From Hormoscilla sp. GUM202 (GTDB taxonomy: Bacteria > Cyanobacteriota > Cyanobacteriia > Cyanobacteriales > Desertifilaceae): 32,000 bases of DNA. The stretch is taken from positions 25,598 through 57,597 of the forward strand of contig RFFC02000018.1 of assembly GCA_005518205.2 (NCBI GenBank). The letters are read 5' to 3'. Each line of letters opens with the position of its first letter. Within the stretch, counting starts at the first letter, position 1. Below are positions 411 through 23,855 of the stretch, one piece after another. The position numbers were made by a program, and so were the translations under genes. The notes under the pieces are model-generated. The model was not told the DNA's origin, made no database searches, and saw only the letters and a program-made list of their open reading frames with translations.

Positions 411-881
411 CTAACTGGCGGCTTGTTCTAAATTAAACGATGCGTTCAAGTAGAGATCGCACTCAAACCCGCAGTTGTCACATCGGAAAACCCTTTCTGA
501 TAACGGCATGGAATCTTTTTTTGTGTGACACCTAGAGCAAGTCTTCGTTGAAGGATACCATTGGTCAACCACAACTAAGATCGAGCCGTATAACTCACAC
601 TTGTACGACAACTGTCGTCTGAATTCATAGAATCCCATGTCTGCAATAGCTTTTGCTAGTTTATGATTCGCCATCATCCCTGCTCCCTGCTTCTTTTTAT
701 GCAGGTCAATTGCTGTCGTAAATTTGATTTTCTCTTCTGGATTATCCCGATTATGCTCCAGTATCTGTTTTGTTAAACCCAGTCCCCAATTCCAAGCATG
801 ACGAGCTACTCCGCAATGTTTTGCTAATAGCGTGCGTTGCTTGTTGTTCAGTTTCAATTCTGTCTTAAAGCCTAATAACAT
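411..881 (-). pseudogene. tnpB: TnpB (IS200/IS605-family OrfB) relic with large internal deletion
   Basis: 156-aa ORF. The N-terminus MLLGFKTELKLNNKQRTLLAKHCGVARHAWNWGL is the typical TnpB N-terminal segment. The C-terminus (KLAKAIADMGFYEFRRQLSYKCELYGS...WYPSTKTCSRCHTKKDSMPLSERVFRCDNCGFECDLYLNAS) is the TnpB RuvC-II/zinc-finger/RuvC-III end. Full-length TnpB is roughly 400 aa, so the central core is missing. No TnpA is adjacent. Confidence 0.75.
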
Positions 882-1984: not shown

Positions 1985-2790
1985 AGCTTGCTAATTGAAA
2001 TGTCATGAAAATTAACTTCTATTTGATCTTTCCAGTCTAGCTGAAGTTGAGATTGAGCATTACCTCCATTGACAGCAATCTCTACCCAGCCATGACTTCC
2101 TACCAAGGCGATCGCCTCTAGAGGCGGGCTGTCTGCATAAGTATTGCTACCCTTAATCACCTGGTTCTCTAATTTAATATACCACTGTTTTGCCCGAACG
2201 CAGCTGCCGGGAATATTGGTGATTAAATTGCCAAAATGGTCGATATACTGAATGCAGCCAGTGATGCTGGTTGCTGTGTGAGTACATGCAGGTAGGGGTA
2301 ACTGGACTAAAGTTTCTGGGTCGATCGGGTTTCCCAGTTCAACTAGAGGGACGCCGCTAGCCAGATGGGCCCCCACAGGTGCGAAGATATCTCTACCGTG
2401 AAAGGTGCTGCTAGGTGTGGGCGTATGCCAATATTCTGGGTTGTCGAGTTCGACCGCTGCCAGCACGGGATTTTCCGCCAAAATGCCGCTGAATATTCCG
2501 TTATCGGGTCCGACTAGATAAAAGTGCGACAGGAAAAGGGCGATCGCCCTCCTGCTACTCCCCACTCCGGGATCGACAACAGCGACATGAACGGTCCCGG
2601 CGGGAAAATAGGGCAGGGCCTCACGCAAGCAGAACCTGGCCGCGAGAATGTTCTGGGGAGGAATGTTGTGGGTGATATCCACTACTTTTAAACTCGGGTT
2701 AATCCGGGCAATTAGGCCCTTCATTACCCCTACATAGATGTCACTCAAGCCAAAATCACTCAGCAAAGTTAAGAGGTGGCGATCGTCCAT
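1981..2790 (-). CDS. SAM hydrolase / SAM-dependent halogenase family protein (DUF62, SAM hydroxide adenosyltransferase-like)
   Basis: 269-aa ORF with family motifs LLSDFGLSDIYVGVMKG, VVDPGVGSSRR, GPDNGIFS and STFHGRDIFAPVGAHLA. Confidence 0.85.
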   Translation of the reverse strand: MDDRHLLTLLSDFGLSDIYVGVMKGLIARINPSLKVVDITHNIPPQNILAARFCLREALPYFPAGTVHVAVVDPGVGSSRRAIALFLSHFYLVGPDNGIFSGILAENPVLAAVELDNPEYWHTPTPSSTFHGRDIFAPVGAHLASGVPLVELGNPIDPETLVQLPLPACTHTATSITGCIQYIDHFGNLITNIPGSCVRAKQWYIKLENQVIKGSNTYADSPPLEAIALVGSHGWVEIAVNGGNAQSQLQLDWKDQIEVNFHDISISKL

Positions 2791-3107
2791 TAACTTATTT
2801 TCCCTTAAACAAAGGACTATTTTACAGCATGTTTATATAAGAGGCAGAAACTGGAGTTTGCGTTCCGGACAGCTGTGCCCAAGGTAGATTCACTTAAGGA
2901 AAAACCGAAAGGTTCTCATGAAATCCTTATGAGGCATCTACTGCTTTGTAAGCACCCCAGGGAAAGTAGATCCCTTTTGTTGGCTTTGATGCTCCGGAAA
3001 CCACCGGTTTTATTAATTTTTGTAACCATCGCTACACAGTTTTTTCCAGAAAGGGTTATCTTAGAAGTGTGAGCCTTAATTAAATTTCGTCTAAAAAAAA
3101 GTCCACC

Positions 3108-5760: not shown

Positions 5761-6357
5761 TTACTCAATTGCACTCCGTAAGATACCCAGAATCTTGCCG
5801 ACATTATTCAGAAAATACTCATTTAAGTCTATGGATATCGTTTGTTCTTCAAGTTTCAAAAATTTCCAGTTAGTTCCTGTCGTGACTGAGCCATAGATGG
5901 TTTTGATTTCACTTTCTTGGCGTTGATTAAATAACTGAGCTGCTAACATTTCGGCCATGCATTGCCCTAAGCCTGATTTAATATTATCATTTTTTGCTTC
6001 GACGAGGGTGATAACGGGTGCTTCAATTAACAACTGTTCGGGAGAACGACTAATTAGAAAGTCGCAACGTCCATTCAAGCCTCTTTCCAAGTCAACATTA
6101 AAGTCTTTGCCTGAAAATAAGCCGATCTGACCTTGTAATTGTGTCTTGAGTTCAAATAAAATGGGGGCAATGATAAATTCAGACCGGGATTTTTCTGTAT
6201 CAATTGCTAGTGCTAAGGGTATATATTTTTGCAACGATTGTGCTAGAAAATCGCTGTACTCTATCTCGGGAATATCTGCAAATATCCCAAATTTATCGAA
6301 AATTGTTATGCCAAAGGTGGTTTTGATTTCCTCTATGCTAAATTGACTGTATGACAT
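5761..6357 (-). CDS. PD-(D/E)xK-like family protein (paralog of 29620-30228)
   Basis: 198 aa: MSYSQFSIEEIKTTFGI...SEKSRSEFIIAPILFEL...GRCDFLISRSPEQLLIEAPVITLVEAKNDNIKSGLGQCMAEMLAAQ...YGSVTTGTNWKF. It aligns along its full length with the 29620-30228 product. Confidence 0.65.
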   Translation of the reverse strand: MSYSQFSIEEIKTTFGITIFDKFGIFADIPEIEYSDFLAQSLQKYIPLALAIDTEKSRSEFIIAPILFELKTQLQGQIGLFSGKDFNVDLERGLNGRCDFLISRSPEQLLIEAPVITLVEAKNDNIKSGLGQCMAEMLAAQLFNQRQESEIKTIYGSVTTGTNWKFLKLEEQTISIDLNEYFLNNVGKILGILRSAIE

Positions 6358-7955: not shown

Positions 7956-9565
7956 TTACATAATTGACTCCAGCAAATAGTACCGCTGACATGCTGGTGG
8001 AAAGAACTTCAAAAAGTGCAACCGCTCCTCATTAATATTGGAAATCTGTTTGCTCCCGCGATCGATATAGATATGAATTGACTGAAAACATTGAAATATC
8101 CAACGAAGAGTTGGTCTATCCGTCAGCCGACCTAACTGATTTTTTACTCCTGAACCTGTTCGTTTAAGTGTTTGCCTTATCTGTCGCTCTGCTACCTTAT
8201 ACACTAACAAAGATAAGGCCATAATTAAACCTAAAACTTCAATGCGTTTTGGCGATTTAATAAATACACTATCAGCAAAAAACATGGGCGATTTAAAAAA
8301 CTTAAAACAACGCTCCACGCTGCTCGTTTTTATGGAGAGCATTTTTTCGGGATTTAGCGCTAATTCATCGAGTTGATTAGTTGCTAAAATAAAGCGTCCT
8401 GCCTGGTTTTTTTTCTCTTGCACTTGTTCGAGACATTCCCTAATAGTTGCTTGGACTTGATAGTGGCAATCAGACTCTCCACTCTCAGACTTAGTGAAAA
8501 TCGATTGAGTTGTTATGTCCGTTAGTTGATGATACAATGATTTTTTTAATAGCTTATTTGCCGCTACTATAGCATCCGGGGCACAAGCAAATTCACGACA
8601 ACTTAATTCTTTTAATTTATTTTTGGCAACACGTAAATCTTTGTCAATTTTATCCTGCAATTTTTTGAGGTCTGATTCCCGACGCTCCTGACTTTCAATT
8701 ACTAGCCATCTTTGTTCTATATCTCCATAGTTTTGCCTTACTTCTAGGTAACGATATCCTGGCTGTTCGCAAGAAATAAAATTCTCTGTATCCGCCTCCG
8801 TGACCAACTTCTTGGCTGCTTTAATAGTAAGTGGCACTCGCGATAACCACTTGATATCACCTAAAATTTGCAGTCTTGCGTATATAATGCTGCATCGGCT
8901 ACCATTAACCCTGAAAATTCAAAAGTTTTTTTGAACTCTGTTATTGCTAAAGGAATTTCTTTTTGGTCTGAGGCATTTCCATCTCCCATCTTTATCCATA
9001 AAGGAATACCTCCATCTCCTGAACAAATTAACTGCATTGTATATTGTTTCAAATCTGGTCTATGGTCTCTTGAATATCCATGAGTTATTTTTATTGGCCT
9101 AGGTTCGACTACAGATGATGTTTTGTACTCTCCATGAACATGAAATGAACTTGAATCTCTATGTGCTGTTTCCCTTTTGATTTGATATTTTTTTAATACT
9201 GATAACGCTATCTCAACTTCTCCAATTCCTATTTCATATAGCTCATCCATAACTCTTCCCAATTTATCATCATTCAAATATTCCGGTTTGACTCCAACTC
9301 CAATTAAGTGTTCTATTGCTTTTCCTTCAAAAAATCTGGAAAACAGGTATAATGGTGCTGACACTAATCCTAAGGCATTTATTATCATTGCTTTAACAAC
9401 TTGACCAGAACTAATTTTCTCTGATGAGTGTTTTGGCAATCGCCGGTTAATTATCAATTCTATTCCTATGTCATCGATGATTCCGGCCACTAATCCCAGA
9501 TGATCTAGATTGGTAATTTCCATCATTCTGTATCTGAACTTCAAACACGTTCCATTATAACTCAA
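7956..9565 (-). pseudogene. IS1634-like (IS4 superfamily) transposase interrupted by one frameshift
   Basis: The N-terminal ORF (8861-9565) has LDHLGLVAGIIDDIGI and ITHGYSRDHRPDLKQ...VADAALYTQD. The second frame continues ..LQILGDIKWLSRVPLTIKAAKKL...QRWLVIESQERRESD (7956-8837). The two frames join if one nt is added or removed near 8865-8880. Element ends were not resolved. Confidence 0.75.
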
Positions 9566-9708
9566 TGCCAGGGATTTTGGGGCAGATCGGGAGCATGTCT
9601 GAGTATTTATACTCAGATACCTTCTTCACTACGTACTACATTTGTGGCACAAAATGATTTTTTTCGTAATACATGATACAGCATTTATCATAAAGATGAG
9701 GTACAATA

Positions 9709-10692
9709 GTGAGGTCAGCAGTAGAACCCTCGAAAACCATGAAGCCCTATTCAGTTGATCTCCGCCAGAAAATTATAGAAACCTATGAAAATGAGGAGAT
9801 ATCACAAAGACAACTAGCCAAAAGATTCCGAGTAGCATTCAGTTTCGTTATCAAAATTCTCAAGCAGTACCGGTCCACTGGCAACTTGAAGCCGGGTATT
9901 AGCACCGGTCGTCCCCTCAAGCTCAACCAGTCCCAACAGGAAAAGCTCAAAGTTTTAGTAGAGGAAAATAATGATTGGACATTGTCAGAATATCAGTCAG
10001 AATTAGAAAAACAGACGGAGGTAAAAGTCAGCCGTTCCACAATAGACAGAATGATTAAACGGTCGGGATTGACCGTAAAAAAAAAGGCATTACATCCGAC
10101 GGAAAAGAGAAGTTCTCGAGTTCAGCAGTTAAGGTTAGACTACTGGAAAGAGATAGAAGGAATTGAGCCTACTGACCTCATTTTTCTGGATGAATCGGGC
10201 TGCAACCTGGCTTTAACACGGATGTATGCCCGCTCACAATGTGGTCTGAGAGCTTATGGAAGTAAACCCAGTAAGCGAGGACAAAATGTTTCAATAGTTG
10301 GGGCAGTTAGTCTCAATGGGATAGTGAGTTCATTGAATATTTTAGGTGCTTATGATAGCTTAACATTTGAGGCATTTGTGATTCGACACTTAGTGCCAAA
10401 GCTGTGGAAAGGAGCTTGTGTTGTGATGGACAACTGTACAATTCATAAGGGAGATGTAATCCGACAAGCTATTGAAAAAGTGGGGGCGCGGTTAGTCTAT
10501 CTTCCTCCTTATTCGCCAGACTTCTCTCCAATTGAAAATATTTGGTCAAAGCTGAAGAGTTATCTCAAGAAACTAGAAGCCAGAACCTATCGGGCCTTAG
10601 TAGATGGCATTCAGGAGGGCTTTGCTACCATCAACCTGCAAGATATCCACAACTGGTTCACCCACTGTTGCTACTGTACCTCACCATTTTGA
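9709..10692 (+). CDS. IS630-family (Tc1/mariner-like) DDE transposase
   Basis: An N-terminal HTH is followed by the DDE triad context FLDESG, VVMDNCTIHK and PYSPDFSPIENIWSKLK. The likely true start is the ATG at 9739 (MKPYSVDLRQKI). An imperfect inverted repeat, AGCATTTATCA / TGATAAATGCT, lies at about 9681 and 10691. The outer ends are roughly 9640 and 10735 and are not resolved. Confidence 0.85.
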   Translation: MRSAVEPSKTMKPYSVDLRQKIIETYENEEISQRQLAKRFRVAFSFVIKILKQYRSTGNLKPGISTGRPLKLNQSQQEKLKVLVEENNDWTLSEYQSELEKQTEVKVSRSTIDRMIKRSGLTVKKKALHPTEKRSSRVQQLRLDYWKEIEGIEPTDLIFLDESGCNLALTRMYARSQCGLRAYGSKPSKRGQNVSIVGAVSLNGIVSSLNILGAYDSLTFEAFVIRHLVPKLWKGACVVMDNCTIHKGDVIRQAIEKVGARLVYLPPYSPDFSPIENIWSKLKSYLKKLEARTYRALVDGIQEGFATINLQDIHNWFTHCCYCTSPF

Positions 10693-12152: not shown

Positions 12153-13472
12153 TCAGTTGAAGGTGAGGGCTTGCCCCCGGACTTCTTTGCGCAAATTGCC
12201 GCGATCGTAGGCAACTTGACCGCCGACAATGGTCACAACGGGCCAACCTGTCAAGTTCCAACCTTCAAAGGGACTCCAACCACATTTGGTCAGGAGTTCC
12301 TCGCGGCGTACTGGACGATAGCTGTTCAGGTCTACCAGTACCAAGTCAGCATCATAGCCCGGGGCAATGACGCCTTTATTAGGAATCTTGTAGGCTTTCG
12401 CTGGTGCCAGTGACATCCAGTGAGAGACTTGGGCAATGCTACAACGCCCCTGCATTGCCTGAGTCAGCATCAGGGGTAAAGATGTCTCTACTCCTGGCAT
12501 GCCCGAAGGAGAATTAGGATATCCTCGGGCTTTTTCCTCTAAAGTGTGGGGGGCGTGGTCTGTAGCGATAAAGTCAATTACCCCATCTAGCAAGGCTTGC
12601 CACAGGACTTGGTTGTCCTGGGGAGTGCGCAAAGGGGGATTCATTTGAGCCAAGGTGCCAAGCTGTTCGTAAGCGCTAGTATTGAGTAGTAGGTGTTGGG
12701 GCGTTACTTCTGCTGTCACCCAGCTGGGCTTATCCTGACGCAGCAATTCTGCTTCGACACCGGTAGACATATGTAGAATATGCAGGCGTCGCTGGTATTT
12801 CTTCGACAGCCCCAGGGCCTGAACAGTCGCGTTCAAGGCTGCCTGTGAGTCCTGTATTTGGGAATGAACCGCTGGGTTAGTCTCGCCCACAAATAACTGC
12901 CGGCGCTCGGATATCCGGGCTTGGTCTTCGGCATGTACAGCGATCGGCCGCCTGCCAGTAGCAAAGATTCTCTCCAGCACCTCGGACTGGTCAACCAGGA
13001 GATCGCCCTTCATGGACCCCATAAAAATTTTAATTCCTGGCGTGGGATTTGCGGAGAGCAGATCGGGGGAACAGGCTGACGTTGCTCCAATAAAAAAGCC
13101 ATAATTGACTAAGCACTTCTGTTGGGCCCGTCCCAGCTTGTCATCTAGAGTGGACTGGTCTGTTGTCAGTGGGCGTGTATTGGGCATCTCCAAAAATGAA
13201 GTCACGCCCCCCTTAGCACAAGCACAGCTAGCTGTCAACAGGTCTTCTTTATGCTCTAGACCTGGTTCTCGGAAATGCACCTGGGGGTCGATCGCACCTG
13301 GCAACAATGTCAACCCCTCGGCGTCTAGAACCTCCTCAGGGACGGATCCGAGATCCGGGGCGACTTGGACAATTTCTCGATCGCGGATCCCGACATCCCC
13401 CACCAGGAAATCACCAGTGGGTAAAAGAATCCGTGCCTGACGAATCAACAAACTAAAAGGAGTAGCTGACAT
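12153..13472 (-). CDS. pyrC: dihydroorotase (amidohydrolase superfamily, about 440-aa class)
   Basis: Motifs DPQVHFREPGLEHKEDL, VTSFLEMPNT, IAVHAED, HILHMST and FIATDHAPH are present. Confidence 0.8.
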   Translation of the reverse strand: MSATPFSLLIRQARILLPTGDFLVGDVGIRDREIVQVAPDLGSVPEEVLDAEGLTLLPGAIDPQVHFREPGLEHKEDLLTASCACAKGGVTSFLEMPNTRPLTTDQSTLDDKLGRAQQKCLVNYGFFIGATSACSPDLLSANPTPGIKIFMGSMKGDLLVDQSEVLERIFATGRRPIAVHAEDQARISERRQLFVGETNPAVHSQIQDSQAALNATVQALGLSKKYQRRLHILHMSTGVEAELLRQDKPSWVTAEVTPQHLLLNTSAYEQLGTLAQMNPPLRTPQDNQVLWQALLDGVIDFIATDHAPHTLEEKARGYPNSPSGMPGVETSLPLMLTQAMQGRCSIAQVSHWMSLAPAKAYKIPNKGVIAPGYDADLVLVDLNSYRPVRREELLTKCGWSPFEGWNLTGWPVVTIVGGQVAYDRGNLRKEVRGQALTFN

Positions 13473-14507: not shown

Positions 14508-14981
14508 AATGGAAACTGTATATCTACCTCCCAAAGGGAGAAGTTTACTAGCATCCCGTCTTTTGCTGGCCTACGTGGGCTTTGCTACTATCACTTTATC
14601 CGCCTGTACAGGAGAACCGGTTATGACTTCATTAAACAAGGAAATTGTCACCCTTGATGTTGGTCCCAATTTGGTGGACTGCGTTGGCTTTATACCCCAG
14701 AAATGTATGTTGGTGCGGGAAGAGGACGAGCAGGATTTTACCTATTTATACGATGCTATTGAGGGGTTTGATTATGAATCGGGCTATAACTATAAGCTGC
14801 GCCTATGGCTGGCGCCACGCTGCGCGATCAGAAAACCCCGATCGAAAATCCTCCTGCGGATGCTTCGTCTATCCAGTGGACGTTAGTTGAACAGTTGGTC
14901 ATTGCACTCCCGCTACCCCGTAGAAGCGCTAAAGCGCTTACTACAAACGGCTTATTACAAATGGACAACGCGCCCCTGTAA
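14508..14981 (+). pseudogene. DUF4377-like lipoprotein gene frameshifted by a 23-nt repeat insertion
   Basis: METVYLPPKGRSLLASRLLLAYVGFATITLSAC has a lipobox, followed by ...CVGFIPQKCMLVRE...IEGFDYESGYNYKLR in one frame. The conserved end QKTPIENPPADASSIQWTLVEQLV is in another frame. The shift coincides with CTATGGCTGGCGCCACGCTGCGC (14803-14825), which is flanked by the direct repeat CTGCGC. Removing 23 nt restores the frame. Confidence 0.6.
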
Positions 14982-16274
14982 TTTGCGCCCTAACCAAGGC
15001 GTATTAGTAGCACGAGATTTCAGAGTTAGATTCTCAACAGTCCAGGTTTGTTGAGGGTCAAATAGCATAAGTTCCGCTGGTTCTCCTGCTGATATGACAG
15101 CAGGTTTCTGCTGCAAACATAAGGCCGGATTTGTACTCATACTCCGCCATAATTGAGCAGCTGATAATTGCCCGGTTTCTACCAAACTGTGCCATAATAA
15201 CGGTAATGCTAGTTCTAACCCGATCGCCCCTGGAGGTGCTTCGGCAAAAGCTACGGTTTTTTCCTCGTAGGTATAGGGACTGTGGTCGATCGCGATCGCA
15301 TCGATTACCCCATCCCTGACTCCGGCAATTAAACTCTCCCGATCGACTGGGTTTCCTAAAGGCGGTTCCAAACGCAAATTCGGGTCGTAGCAATGACTAG
15401 CGATCGCCGGAGTATCCAGCAACAGATGCATCCAGGTAGTGCTAGCTGTCACGGGCAATTTGCGACTCTTAGCATCGTAGATCATTTCCACAGCCCCAGC
15501 AGTAGAAACCCGCATCACATGCACCCCCGTACCAGTATATTCCACCAATTGTAACAAAGTCGCCAGGGCAGTTGTTTCCCCAATTGCTGGAGTTCCCGGT
15601 AACCCCAAACGTAGGGAGAAAATTCCCTCTCGCATCACCCCATCTTCCGCCAAACTGCCATTATTCGGCCACAGCGCCACTGGCTTTCCTAAAGGCTGCA
15701 AGTATTCTAACAAACGTCTGAGTAGAGCCAGATTTTCCACTGGCTTACCATCAGCAAAACCTACCACTCCTGCTGCGGCTAACTCTGCCAATTGAGTCAT
15801 CTGTAGTCCTTGGGTACCCAAAGTAAGAGCCCCCCAGCAATAGAGATGGACTCGTCGATATCTTCCGTGTGCTCTTGTCCTGAAGGACATGCGCTGCGCG
15901 CCCAGCGCAGCGCCATCGGCACACTCTAGATATCGCCTTTTCATCAATGCCAAAGCACCTGTGTTATCCACTGGCGGCATTGTATCTGGTAAAATGGCAA
16001 TTCTGGTAAAACCCCCCGCCGCCGCCGCTTCCATCAGAGACTCTAAAGTTTCCCGCTGCTCAAACCCAGGTTCTCCAGAATGGCTGTACAGATCCACTAA
16101 TCCCGGTCCCATTACCAGTCCCCGGCAATTCTTCACATTCCCCTCACTGGGGTTGTCCGCAATCATTGCGCTTAAGCGCTTAATATAACCCTCTTCTATC
16201 AGCACATCGCATACTCTATCTGTACCCGAAACTGGCTCAATTAAACGCACTTGTTGCAGCAGTAATTCACTCAT
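14955..16274 (-). CDS. dihydroorotase-like protein lacking the HxH metal motif (PyrC-prime-like), with in-frame repeat insertion
   Basis: 439 aa of the amidohydrolase fold with GLVDLYSHSGEPG in place of DxHxH, and AIDHSPYTYEEK. Residues RYLECADGAALGAQRMSFRTRAHGRYR are encoded by the palindromic repeat at 15856-15935. Confidence 0.8.
   Translation of the reverse strand: MSELLLQQVRLIEPVSGTDRVCDVLIEEGYIKRLSAMIADNPSEGNVKNCRGLVMGPGLVDLYSHSGEPGFEQRETLESLMEAAAAGGFTRIAILPDTMPPVDNTGALALMKRRYLECADGAALGAQRMSFRTRAHGRYRRVHLYCWGALTLGTQGLQMTQLAELAAAGVVGFADGKPVENLALLRRLLEYLQPLGKPVALWPNNGSLAEDGVMREGIFSLRLGLPGTPAIGETTALATLLQLVEYTGTGVHVMRVSTAGAVEMIYDAKSRKLPVTASTTWMHLLLDTPAIASHCYDPNLRLEPPLGNPVDRESLIAGVRDGVIDAIAIDHSPYTYEEKTVAFAEAPPGAIGLELALPLLWHSLVETGQLSAAQLWRSMSTNPALCLQQKPAVISAGEPAELMLFDPQQTWTVENLTLKSRATNTPWLGRKLQGRVVHL
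15856..15935. repeat. about 80-nt nested palindromic repeat (CGATATCT family) inside the dihydroorotase-like gene
   Basis: The outer arms are CGATATCTTCCGTGTGC ... GGCACACTCTAGATATCG. The inner hairpins are TGTCC-tgaa-GGACA and GCGCTGCGCG-ccc-AGCGCAGCGC. Confidence 0.8.
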
Positions 16275-21293: not shown

Positions 21294-21438
21294 TTCTCAC
21301 TCTCCTCATCTTTGGGGATGCTAATGGTTAACCATACTTAACTTTCCCATGTCCCATTACATCAGAAATTAGTCCTTTCCACACCAATGATATCGTCATA
21401 GGCAGCAGCATACTAAAAAACTGGTAATTTCCGGAAAA

Positions 21439-22704
21439 TTATCCCCATTTATACGCATATCCATCTCTTCTGAAGACAGGTTTTAGGTCTATTGGCTTGA
21501 CTGACTTCTGGGTTTTGTCAGGTTTGGTCAACACAAAACTACCCCGACTTCTAGGAGTAATTCTACCTATCCCATGTACTTTATGCTTGGCAATATCGCC
21601 AGTTTGCCATCCCTTAATGGGCTTTAATGGATTGTGACGGATTGGATATCCGTACTTGTTAAGAGCTGCTTTTTGACGACCTCCACGCCCCTTACAAGTA
21701 ATTAGTAGTGGTTGAGTAGTTGAGATTTTTAACATGGGGGTACTTTTACCCACACAAGCTGCATCTAACCAATGAGTTTTAGGTAGCCCTTGAAGAGTCC
21801 GGTTGTATTTTGTTAAACCTCCCGTGCCAGTTTCAATAGTTAATCCAGTTTCCTTAAGGCGGTTAAACAATGCCCATCGGGTAGAATTGACTGCCGCTGC
21901 ATCTTTTAGGGGTGCTTTTGCTTGCGCTAGCAAGCGCTTCAAAACTTCGGGCCTCTTTTTTAAGAATTGCTCGACAGCAGAGGCTGCTTTTTTCTGGTTG
22001 CATTTATGGCAAGCGATAGCGAGATTACTAACTCTGTCAGAGCCTCCCTTACTCTTAGGATGAATATGTTCTATTTCTAACGGGACTTCTTTTGCACCGC
22101 AGTAAGCGCACTGGTGCCGCCATTTCGTTAAGAGATATTCCCTTAATTCGTATCCAAACAAGACTCCCTGCTGATACTCGACCCCTGATATCTCAGGGTT
22201 TTGCAGCTTTTGCATGTCGAACCGCACCAGCTCCATTGAGATGTCCGTTATCGGGCAATACTTCCGCAAGCGCTTGACCCAGGTCATAGTCGTTTCTACT
22301 CGATGTTGCAGGCTAGGAGTTAGCCATCCTAGGGGGCGCTTCCTGTTATTGAATCTCGCAGGACGGTAGCGAGTTTTACGATTGCGACGGTTGCGGCGAA
22401 CAACACGGCGGAAGCTCAACTTTTGCCGTATTATATCTCCTCTGTGACTCAATTCTGCTGCCCAGACAACTGTACCAGTCCTCTCATTAACTAGCGCAAT
22501 ACCAGTCACCTTAGCTCCCGGGTCTAATTTAATCCGATAAGGTTCATTACCGGGAGTTCCAACAGTTTTTCTGAGAATAATCGTAAACGGATAAGTCCTA
22601 AACACTGCTGCCTTTCCCTGCTTCAAAAGCTTTCTCGCTCTGGCCGGATGAGTTGAACTGAGCGGTTGCTTATTGGCATCTAAAACGAAAATACAATTTT
22701 GCAT
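21439..22704 (-). CDS. iscB: IscB RNA-guided nuclease (HNH + split RuvC, OMEGA system effector)
   Basis: 421 aa. The domains read in order as follows. PLMP-like N-terminus: FVLDANKQPLSSTHPARARKLLKQGKA. RuvC-I: IKLDPGAKVTGIAL. Arg-rich bridge helix: RRNRRNRKTRYRPARFNNRKRPLGWLTPSLQH, where the ARFNNRKRPxGWLTP block matches what I recall of characterised IscB. RuvC-II: ISMELVRFD. HNH: CAYCG..LEIEHIHPKSKGGSDRVSNLAIACHKCNQKK. RuvC-III: THWLDAACVG. Confidence 0.9.
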   Translation of the reverse strand: MQNCIFVLDANKQPLSSTHPARARKLLKQGKAAVFRTYPFTIILRKTVGTPGNEPYRIKLDPGAKVTGIALVNERTGTVVWAAELSHRGDIIRQKLSFRRVVRRNRRNRKTRYRPARFNNRKRPLGWLTPSLQHRVETTMTWVKRLRKYCPITDISMELVRFDMQKLQNPEISGVEYQQGVLFGYELREYLLTKWRHQCAYCGAKEVPLEIEHIHPKSKGGSDRVSNLAIACHKCNQKKAASAVEQFLKKRPEVLKRLLAQAKAPLKDAAAVNSTRWALFNRLKETGLTIETGTGGLTKYNRTLQGLPKTHWLDAACVGKSTPMLKISTTQPLLITCKGRGGRQKAALNKYGYPIRHNPLKPIKGWQTGDIAKHKVHGIGRITPRSRGSFVLTKPDKTQKSVKPIDLKPVFRRDGYAYKWG

Positions 22705-22928
22705 TTAAGCAACTCCCAAAAAAGGGGTAAAGTTTGCCTCGGTCATGTTAAGGGAGCTTTTTACATCTAACTCACGCGGTCCTACAAAATCCATTCGTTC
22801 CGTTCCTTAAAGCTAGACGACAGAGCTACGAGCTGGCGCTCACCCGTAGGTATCATGACTCCCCTAACGTAGGTCTGATCCTGGACCTGCATCTTGCATC
22901 TCCCCAAGGGAGATAATTACCGGTATTG
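22705..22928 (-). ncRNA. candidate IscB omega RNA (HEARO-class) scaffold
   Basis: This non-coding gap of about 220 nt lies immediately 5' of iscB on the same strand, which is the canonical position of the omega RNA. It is rich in stems (minus strand): ATCTCCC-ttg-GGGAGAT, AGGTC-caggatca-GACCT, AGCT-cgt-AGCT, and AGCTCCC...GGGAGTT next to the start codon. The exact 5' end and guide were not determined. Confidence 0.65.
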
Positions 22929-22945
22929 CCGGTAATTACCGGATT

Positions 22946-23551
22946 TTATGCAAGAGCTATTACACAGTAAGATAAAGGTATCGTTACCAACAGCCCTAGT
23001 CCTAGTAGCAGCAGGCCACCTAGGTTAATCAAGGCCAAAATTAAGGCCAACCCCAAAAATGAGAACCATTCCTTAGTGACGATTTTTCTACTTGTTTCCA
23101 TCCCTTGCCAAAAATCCATTCTTCTGTCCAAGATAATGGGATATGTGAGCAAATAGGATATTACCAGGTAAATTCCCGGAAGGATTAGTAAAATTGTCCC
23201 CAGCAATATTAAAATAAGCGCAACTAAGTCTGCTAACACCAGGGGCACAAAATAGTTGAACCCCTTAAAGAAGTCTCCTATCACCGTTGACTGTTTTTTG
23301 ACAATCTGTAATGCCGCAATGAGAAGACCTGCGCTTAGTGGTCCATAAATCACTATGAACGCCGGATACGAGATTCTTGGAACCATTTGTTCGAGGGCCA
23401 TACTGACAACGAACAACAAAACAGTAAAGCCCAGAAAAAGACAGATTTTTTGCTTGAATATTTGCCAACCTTCACTGATATATTTGCCAATTTTTACTGT
23501 GTAGCCTTCGCTAATTACAGTTTGCAAGTTTTTCGGAATGTTCTCAGACAT
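22946..23551 (-). CDS. integral membrane protein, function unknown
   Basis: Hydrophobic ORF. The likely start is the ATG at 23551 (MSENIPKNLQTVISEGYTVKIGKYISEGWQIFKQ...) rather than the track start at 23587. It is co-directional with, and ends 3 nt from, the palindrome at the iscB element end. Confidence 0.65.
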   Translation of the reverse strand: MSENIPKNLQTVISEGYTVKIGKYISEGWQIFKQKICLFLGFTVLLFVVSMALEQMVPRISYPAFIVIYGPLSAGLLIAALQIVKKQSTVIGDFFKGFNYFVPLVLADLVALILILLGTILLILPGIYLVISYLLTYPIILDRRMDFWQGMETSRKIVTKEWFSFLGLALILALINLGGLLLLGLGLLVTIPLSYCVIALA

Positions 23552-23855
23552 AATTATCGCTCCGCAACAAAGGATATCAGCCATCAACTCGCGCCAGTCG
23601 GAACTAGAACGGCAAGGGGCCGCTATTTCAGGATATCAGATAATTTCGCTAATCGGGCAGTAATATAACTCATATCTTACATCTATCCCTGACTCGGGTA
23701 CAAAGAACCTTTCGTTTCAGGATATCATAACTCAGATATGCCGGATTGTCAACCAAAAGCCAGGATAATAAAAAAATCATAAAAAATAGATAATTTCGCA
23801 GCATTACGACTAAGATACTAAAAAAAGGTAATTTATTGCTATCCCATTCAGTTAT

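Follow-up and report, generated by a model that had tools for sequence, protein, structure and literature searches.

The DNA analyzed here (the window) is a 32-kb stretch of contig RFFC02000018.1 from Hormoscilla sp. GUM202, a sponge-symbiont cyanobacterium, and it very probably contains (with a probability of about 0.85) a non-autonomous "ISC" insertion sequence of the IS200/IS605 superfamily, carrying only iscB and the gene of its omega RNA. IscB is an RNA-guided nuclease and an ancestor of Cas9. An earlier reading of the same DNA, made from its letters only (the sequence-only reading), had placed an apparently intact IscB element with palindromic ends in this region. The features on which the present description is based, including the left and right element ends (LE and RE) and the candidate target-adjacent motif (TAM), are the following, with the evidence used for each (nt, nucleotides; aa, amino acids; dN/dS, ratio of nonsynonymous to synonymous substitution rates).

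21406-22956, minus strand: ISC (IscB) insertion sequence, the conserved repeat unit of 1551 bp; multi-copy alignment and an identical metagenome contig.
21439-22704, minus strand: iscB coding sequence, intact, 421 aa; Pfam, NCBIfam, structure alignments and dN/dS.
22722-22956, minus strand: omega RNA (HEARO) scaffold of about 230 nt, 3' limit uncertain; RF02033, fold and covariation.
22892-22955, minus strand: 5' module of the omega RNA; fold of the window sequence, same architecture in 12 subfamily copies.
22912-22940, no strand assigned: subterminal hairpin at the omega RNA end (RE in the nomenclature of Meers et al., 2023), GGTAATTACCGG-CAATA-CCGGTAATTATC, which holds a palindromic 14-mer and its half copy.
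21409-21438, no strand assigned: the other element end (LE), the 30 nt after the iscB stop, with an imperfect palindrome at 21421-21434 and a T-run.
21406-21408, minus strand: CTG, candidate target-site motif and TAM adjoining LE; invariance in copies and empty-site reconstruction.
22946-23551, minus strand: 5' part of the interrupted membrane-protein gene, 201-aa product as annotated; exact match to P0001 of Hormoscilla sp. GUM202.
21362-21405, minus strand: orphaned 3' end of the split gene, encoding (A)AYDDIIGVERTNF and a stop; translation of the flank.
22957-22972, minus strand: predicted guide segment of the omega RNA, TCTTACTGTGTAATAG, in flanking host DNA, its 16-nt length assumed from characterised IscBs.
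23724-23752, minus strand: promoter-like site TTGACA-17-TATGAT (11/12) upstream of the membrane-protein gene; consensus scan.

The identity of the protein was taken from sequence-level matches to solved IscBs and is unambiguous. It matches the Pfam families RRXRR (PF14239; 4e-73, 245 bits) and HNH (PF01844; 47 bits), reaches 477.7 bits against a cutoff of 175 with the NCBIfam equivalog NF040563 (guided_IscB, "RNA-guided endonuclease IscB") and passes the curated cut-offs for the split RuvC, the arginine-rich bridge helix and the inserted HNH; the name IscB given by the NCBI annotation model is correct. Searches of the PDB with phmmer returned TbaIscB (9.4e-46) together with HfmIscB and OgeuIscB (about 1e-30). 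The sequence-only reading had described a 421-aa open reading frame (ORF) with all IscB modules and catalytic residues in place, and this description holds: the motifs LDPG (position 60, D61), MELVRF (157, E158), EHIHP (212, H213), CHKCN (232) and HWLDAAC (311, H311 and D314) are present, and in the phmmer alignment to OgeuIscB residues D61, E158, H213, H311 and D314 stand opposite those of RuvC-I, RuvC-II, HNH and RuvC-III. Within HNH, N227/N236 and the CxxC...CxxC cysteines are aligned along with H213, and where that reading had allowed for substituted RuvC or HNH catalytic residues, the comparison with this characterised IscB shows the residues matched. The C-terminal 90 residues lie outside the PDB alignments, yet they are conserved among relatives, whose identity over residues 1-420 is 55-93%. 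When the window gene was compared in pairs with other copies, dN/dS ranged from 0.11 to 0.25, and because of these values iscB is judged, from sequence comparison, to have evolved under purifying selection.

A scan of genomes with the window IscB protein returned 71 loci, the closest of which belong to Hormoscilla metagenome-assembled genomes (88-94% aa identity) and to Arthrospira platensis PCC 7345 (80%). Comparison of 16 related copies from Hormoscilla, Arthrospira and metagenomes delimited the repeat unit at 21406-22956; the aligned copies, surrounded by unrelated flanks, start with CTYTTGCAT and stop after TATGCTG, which in the window corresponds to CTYTTGCATAAAATCCGG starting at 22956 and ...TTTTTTAGTATGCTG ending at 21406. 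The element ends therefore lie outside the palindromes, at 22956 on one side and at 21406/21409 on the LE side. Aligning iscB copies to see where conservation stops had been proposed as a check of the sequence-only reading, and it fixed both ends when applied to the genome and metagenome copies; the extent given by that reading (21421-22946) has to be replaced, since it falls short of the unit by 15 nt at one end and 10 nt at the other, and both palindromes are subterminal rather than terminal. The flanks differ around seven genome copies and six metagenome copies, as for a discrete unit inserted at unrelated sites, and in the six metagenome loci that share the 5' end the boundaries agree with those of the genome-copy alignment. 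In addition, a metagenome contig of 1551 bp (L082; JGI metagenome 3300017829, contig Ga0189853_1071157) is 100% identical to window positions 21406-22956 and carries the exact window IscB protein. Since assemblers break at repeat borders, an assembly that stops at the element ends suggests that several copies, or a polymorphic insertion with filled and empty sites, occurred in that sample. Four matches of a metagenome scan with a 20-mer of RE (L072, L073, L075, L080) were regarded as chance and discarded.

Shortened relatives of the element were also observed. A copy in Hormoscilla sp. SP12CHS1 (L007, 2922-3912) is internally deleted to about 990 bp, retains both ends intact and lacks the greater part of the omega RNA along with the initial ~129 codons of iscB. 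A metagenome contig (FWWL01000052.1; L078, 6278-6627) contains a 350-bp miniature derivative of the window element without iscB, which keeps the complete omega RNA scaffold (~233 nt) and LE with CTG; this PATE-like, guide-RNA-only element would need IscB in trans.

The site of insertion can be recognized from the gene that the element interrupts. The upstream ORF encodes a protein annotated as a 201-aa hypothetical protein (P0001), and its homologues have 213 aa and end in ...PLSxCxxxAAYDDIIGVERTNF. Bases 22946-22956 of this ORF, which hold its last three codons (...LA) and its stop, come from the element, and the 44-nt stretch just past the other element end translates into the C-terminus of the homologue P0002 (...AAYDDIIGVERTNF). 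Because this C-terminus is encoded there, the element has split the membrane-protein gene, at a point 14 codons ahead of the original stop. The sequence-only reading was right that the upstream gene is co-directional and that its stop codon (22948-22946) lies 3 nt from the palindrome; it had taken this stop for the natural end of the gene, but the stop lies within the element, and the gene model is here corrected to that of a membrane protein in which the insertion has replaced the 3' end.

The sequence of the uninterrupted allele was taken as ...GTGTAATAGCTGCTGCCTATGAC. In this reconstruction the CTG at 21408-21406 is kept (...GTAATAG CTG CTGCCTAT...), which gives the C-x3-AAY spacing and the 213 aa of the homologues, and it is the only one that matches them: a direct join yields 212 aa and C-x2-AAY, retention of ATGCTG yields C-x4-AAY with an Asp in the helix, and retention of GCTG or TGCTG shifts the frame. 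In each of the 10 copies for which LE was recovered, CTG stands unchanged beside it, and divergence sets in directly afterwards. Since it is both invariant and needed for the spacing and length of the homologues, CTG is probably the target motif, hence the TAM, rather than a part of the element. The flanks AATAG and CTGCC are not duplicated, which indicates insertion with no target-site duplication, the sole ambiguity being the 2-nt CT common to the element start and to CTG. A similar ambiguity (GT|GG vs N|ATGA) was discussed by Kapitonov et al. (2016; PMC4810608).

The palindromes reported by the sequence-only reading were all found: the perfect 14-mer CCGGTAATTACCGG at 22929-22942, the related CTGGTAATTTCCGG at 21421-21434 and the half copy TAATTACCGG at 22914-22923. 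With up to two mismatches the two palindromes are the only matches in the window, where 0.06 are expected, and two were reached in 0 of 100 shuffles. LE is conserved in nine full copies and in the 350-bp mini-element. When the two ends were compared (21406-21465 on the plus strand, 22897-22956 on the minus strand), a common 22-nt block of A-run and palindrome was found with 18/22 identity, a score reached in 2 of 1000 shuffles. Hairpins are present at both ends, that of RE with compensatory changes. Of the two explanations offered earlier for the palindromes, that of IS200/IS605-type subterminal hairpins is the correct one, and that of a duplicated target was rejected, as in every copy they belong to the conserved element sequence and are not host duplications. 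True terminal inverted repeats, which would point to a DDE transposase, were likewise discarded: the 22-nt block, being palindromic, scores equally in direct and inverted orientation, and the termini are out of register. The feet of the hairpins are identical at both ends (GGTAATT...AATTATC), with the G.T pair of the foot on opposite strands.

The omega RNA is encoded on the strand of iscB, immediately upstream of that gene, and its scaffold starts at 22956, the boundary of the repeat. It had been proposed that the non-coding, stem-rich stretch upstream of iscB encodes this RNA, and the data agree: the 241 bp between the two ORFs fold more stably than shuffled sequences (z = -4.1), and the HEARO family RF02033 aligns at E 3.9e-16. 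The covariance model, suggested at the time as a check, gave a divided answer, in that a scan of the whole window at the Rfam gathering threshold (83 bits for RF02033) yielded no match, and at a relaxed E-value threshold the full model (positions 1-211) aligned to 22727-22917 on the minus strand with 79.1 bits. Among 20 related loci scanned, 13 gave HEARO matches of 84-150 bits, always with their start ~250 nt ahead of the iscB ATG; for the four sister copies scanned from Hormoscilla no HEARO match reached the gathering threshold, and the single Arthrospira copy scanned (L008) passed it narrowly with 84.2 bits.

The low score is explained by the 5' part of the molecule, as the P1 module of this subfamily has diverged in sequence and cmscan forces a wrong P1. 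According to the alignments, the canonical HEARO 5' layout is a P1 stem (GUCAAC.../...GUUGAC) around two hairpins. Folding of the region, another of the checks suggested earlier, gave the same architecture: in the minimum free energy structure of 22956-22722, P1 begins next to the element boundary and pairs 22955-22948 with 22899-22892, enclosing hairpin 1 (22939-22913) and hairpin 2 (22912-22900). A P1-like closing stem and hairpin 1 fold in 12 of 12 subfamily copies, and an A-T pair of hairpin 1 in the window is replaced by T-A or T-G in other copies. In the core, RNAalifold predicted 24 pairs from 21 sequences, with compensatory changes in 20 of them. On the basis of the RF02033 match, the fold of the 5' module and the covariation of the core, the omega RNA is considered real, with a predicted scaffold of ~230 nt, the published average being 242 nt (Meers et al., 2023; bioRxiv 10.1101/2023.03.14.532601). 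The Rfam gathering threshold thus overlooks the omega RNA of the window and of the four Hormoscilla sister copies. As a separate observation, a Prochloron locus (L024) contains two HEARO RNAs, at 2756-2978 (plus strand) and 5846-6074 (minus strand), ~3 kb apart, which represent two close IscB elements.

In characterised systems the guide of IscB is encoded by the flank, 5'-adjacent to the scaffold and outside RE, the transposon end that bounds HEARO (Meers et al., 2023). The sequence directly 5' of the conserved boundary is variable in every copy of the present element. Since the omega RNA scaffold begins at this boundary, the guide would correspond to ~22972-22957, within the membrane-protein coding sequence, and by analogy the predicted target would be the uninterrupted allele of this gene followed by CTG. 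The sequence-only reading had the guide copied from the junction with the palindrome; the hairpin near 22912-22940 sits within the P1 stem of the omega RNA, so the predicted guide moves outward to 22957-22972.

Transcription of IscB elements enters from outside and supply of the RNA by read-through is expected, which accounts for the documented bias toward co-orientation with the upstream gene (Meers et al., 2023). In the window, the promoter-like site at 23724-23752 is a possible source of read-through transcripts that include guide and scaffold, and a consensus scan of the minus strand from there to iscB found no terminator-like site. Among sister copies the upstream ORF is co-directional in L004, L005, L008 and L076 and opposite in L081.

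A mechanism can be proposed on these grounds. Transcription entering from the interrupted gene would produce an RNA in which ~16 nt of flank (22972-22957) are joined to the scaffold, and IscB loaded with this RNA would recognize the uninterrupted allele, ...TCTTACTGTGTAATAG followed by CTG. Such an allele would be re-created whenever a Y1 transposase (TnpA) provided in trans excises the element, with the subterminal hairpins acting as recognition sites for TnpA and the hairpin at the omega RNA end doubling as a part of the RNA. In the systems described by Meers et al. (2023), the TAM is the motif adjoining LE and is also used by TnpA, and the donor joint left by excision is cut by IscB, after which recombination restores the element.

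TnpA queries of IS608 and IS200 were confirmed as Pfam Y1_Tnp (1e-42 and 3e-38, respectively). A tblastn search with both covered the 32-kb window and 81 related loci, taken as up to 3 kb around each genome-contig relative (L001-L071) together with the metagenome stretches, and found nothing. A Pfam scan of 27 of the 34 window ORFs of at least 110 aa detected no Y1 transposase either, in agreement with the earlier description of the element as TnpA-less in this window. Since neither the window nor the 81 related loci yielded a Y1 transposase, the element is non-autonomous. The same absence tells against an element that still moves, and mobility may have ceased. It would fit a stranded relic, structurally intact and no longer mobile or functional, with no compatible TnpA left in the genome and an IscB that is idle or kept for some host function. 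The decay of several sister copies (L005 disrupted, L008 truncated, L007 internally deleted, L074 and L078 without iscB) points in the same direction, as does the synonymous divergence (dS) of 0.24-0.40 to the nearest copies in other genomes, which are fairly diverged. However, nearby tnpA is missing from ~98.5% of iscB loci (linkage is ~1.5%; Meers et al., 2023), so that its absence is the norm for active IscB elements. Besides, the ORF, the catalytic residues, the pairings of the omega RNA and both ends are all intact, the orphaned tail of the split gene still encodes the unchanged ancestral peptide, and the breaks in the metagenome assembly coincide exactly with the element ends, a pattern seen with repeats that are multi-copy or polymorphic. 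A stranded relic is therefore unlikely. Further reservations concern parts of the description: the CTG target and TAM come from one protein-level reconstruction of the empty site; the first two letters of the element are likewise CT, which leaves the position of the cut ambiguous between N|CTG and CT|G; the promoter at 23752-23724 is a consensus match only; and the RF02033 score of 79.1 is below the gathering score of its family.

A different origin would be that of a miniature CRISPR-associated effector resembling Cas9 (type II-D-like), or of an HNH homing endonuclease of a group II intron, in neither case a transposon cargo. Some similarity of the protein to Cas9d (NF049971) does exist, weak and partial (42 bits, where the cutoff is 375), as is that to the HNH domains of Cas9, and group II intron domain matches (RF00029) occur at two related loci, ~1.5-3 kb from iscB (L003 1565-1641 in Hormoscilla and L008 5473-5550 in Arthrospira). 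Yet the protein has only 421 aa and matches IscB at the equivalog level, its conserved ends are transposon-like and found at unrelated loci, the window contains no CRISPR-like array and no Rfam group II intron match at the gathering threshold, and no cas genes were seen among the ORFs scanned. This origin is extremely improbable and was rejected on account of the missing array and intron match and the low Cas9d score.

Within the preferred interpretation, that of a non-autonomous ISC element, it may be speculated that the Hormoscilla/Arthrospira subfamily constitutes an active homing system with a compact 421-aa IscB, a variant 5' module of the omega RNA and an unusually short, non-AT-rich CTG TAM, perhaps serving omega-RNA-only mini-elements such as the 350-bp derivative in trans; this extension is tentative and rather doubtful at present. 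If true, the subfamily would combine a small nuclease of permissive TAM with natural guide-only parasitic elements, and developers of tools could take an interest in a 421-aa nuclease with a 3-nt TAM, provided that CTG proves to be that motif. In its present form the result is a precisely delimited IscB element for which both ends, the start of the omega RNA, a predicted guide and a candidate TAM are given; its practical value is modest.

Other mobile and neighboring genes were noted in the window. A 156-aa ORF at 411-881 (minus strand) joins an N-terminal HTH_OrfB_IS605 domain directly to a C-terminal Cas12f1-like TNB zinc-ribbon domain and matches positions 306-387 of the 389 of NCBIfam guided_TnpB; it is an internally deleted TnpB remnant, so that the window holds a second, decayed IS200/IS605-type element. 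The region around 7956-10692 is rich in insertion sequences: an IS630-type DDE_3 transposase of 327 aa is encoded at 9709-10692 (plus strand), and beside it, at 7956-9565 (minus strand), a DUF4277-containing ORF (8861-9565) and an adjoining 293-aa ORF look like a split IS1634/IS4-type transposase. Two amidohydrolase-family ORFs of 439 aa each lie 1.5 kb apart at 12153-13472 and 14955-16274 (both minus strand), with genes for a signal peptidase and a DUF4377 protein between them. A gene for a putative restriction endonuclease of the Uma2 family (PF05685; 20562-21293, minus strand) follows the orphaned 3' end of the split gene on the same strand, ~70 bp further downstream.

The window element fits the type of IscB/omega RNA system reportedly described by Altae-Tran and colleagues in 2021, and it can be compared in detail with several known systems. 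Cyanobacterial ISC transposons insert at short specific targets without target duplication (Kapitonov et al., 2016). Those described in PMC4810608, for example ISC1-1_MA of Microcystis and the elements of Geitlerinema PCC 7105, measure 1.3-1.7 kb, a range that covers the window element, and iscB is the sole ORF in both; subterminal hairpins, lack of target duplication and lack of tnpA are also shared, and insertion next to a short specific motif is probably shared as well. The relative found in PCC 7105 (L012) has 59% protein identity to the window IscB. The termini differ, being 5'-CTCTTGCAT in the window element and 5'-GTCA in canonical ISC, and so does the target, apparently CTG (from one reconstructed empty site) in contrast to GT|GG, GT|RA or N|ATGA (PMC4810608).

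With the IscB/omega RNA systems of Meers et al. (2023) the element shares an omega RNA upstream of iscB and bounded by RE as well as co-orientation with an upstream host gene and would share, by analogy, a flank-encoded guide, a TAM adjoining LE and dependence on TnpA in trans, whereas its candidate TAM, CTG, is not AT-rich, unlike the TTCAT of Gst. As regards HEARO, the full-length RF02033 model aligns, and the core helices, the pseudoknot segments and the conserved 3' tail (CGAGGCAAAC..UUAC) are present; the 5' P1 and two internal hairpins of the window RNA have diverged in sequence. The catalytic residues align with those of the OgeuIscB-omega RNA structures (PDB 7utn, 7xht), with a protein of 421 aa as compared with 496 aa. 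The traits of type II CRISPR-Cas9, that is an adjacent array with cas1/cas2, a trans-activating CRISPR RNA (tracrRNA) and a recognition (REC) lobe, are not those of this element, and no array-like repeats occur in the window. The differences from known ISC/IscB elements are the terminal sequences, the diverged P1 module and the apparent CTG target; the element otherwise matches the published descriptions (Kapitonov et al., 2016; Meers et al., 2023) and leaves the current understanding of these systems unchallenged.

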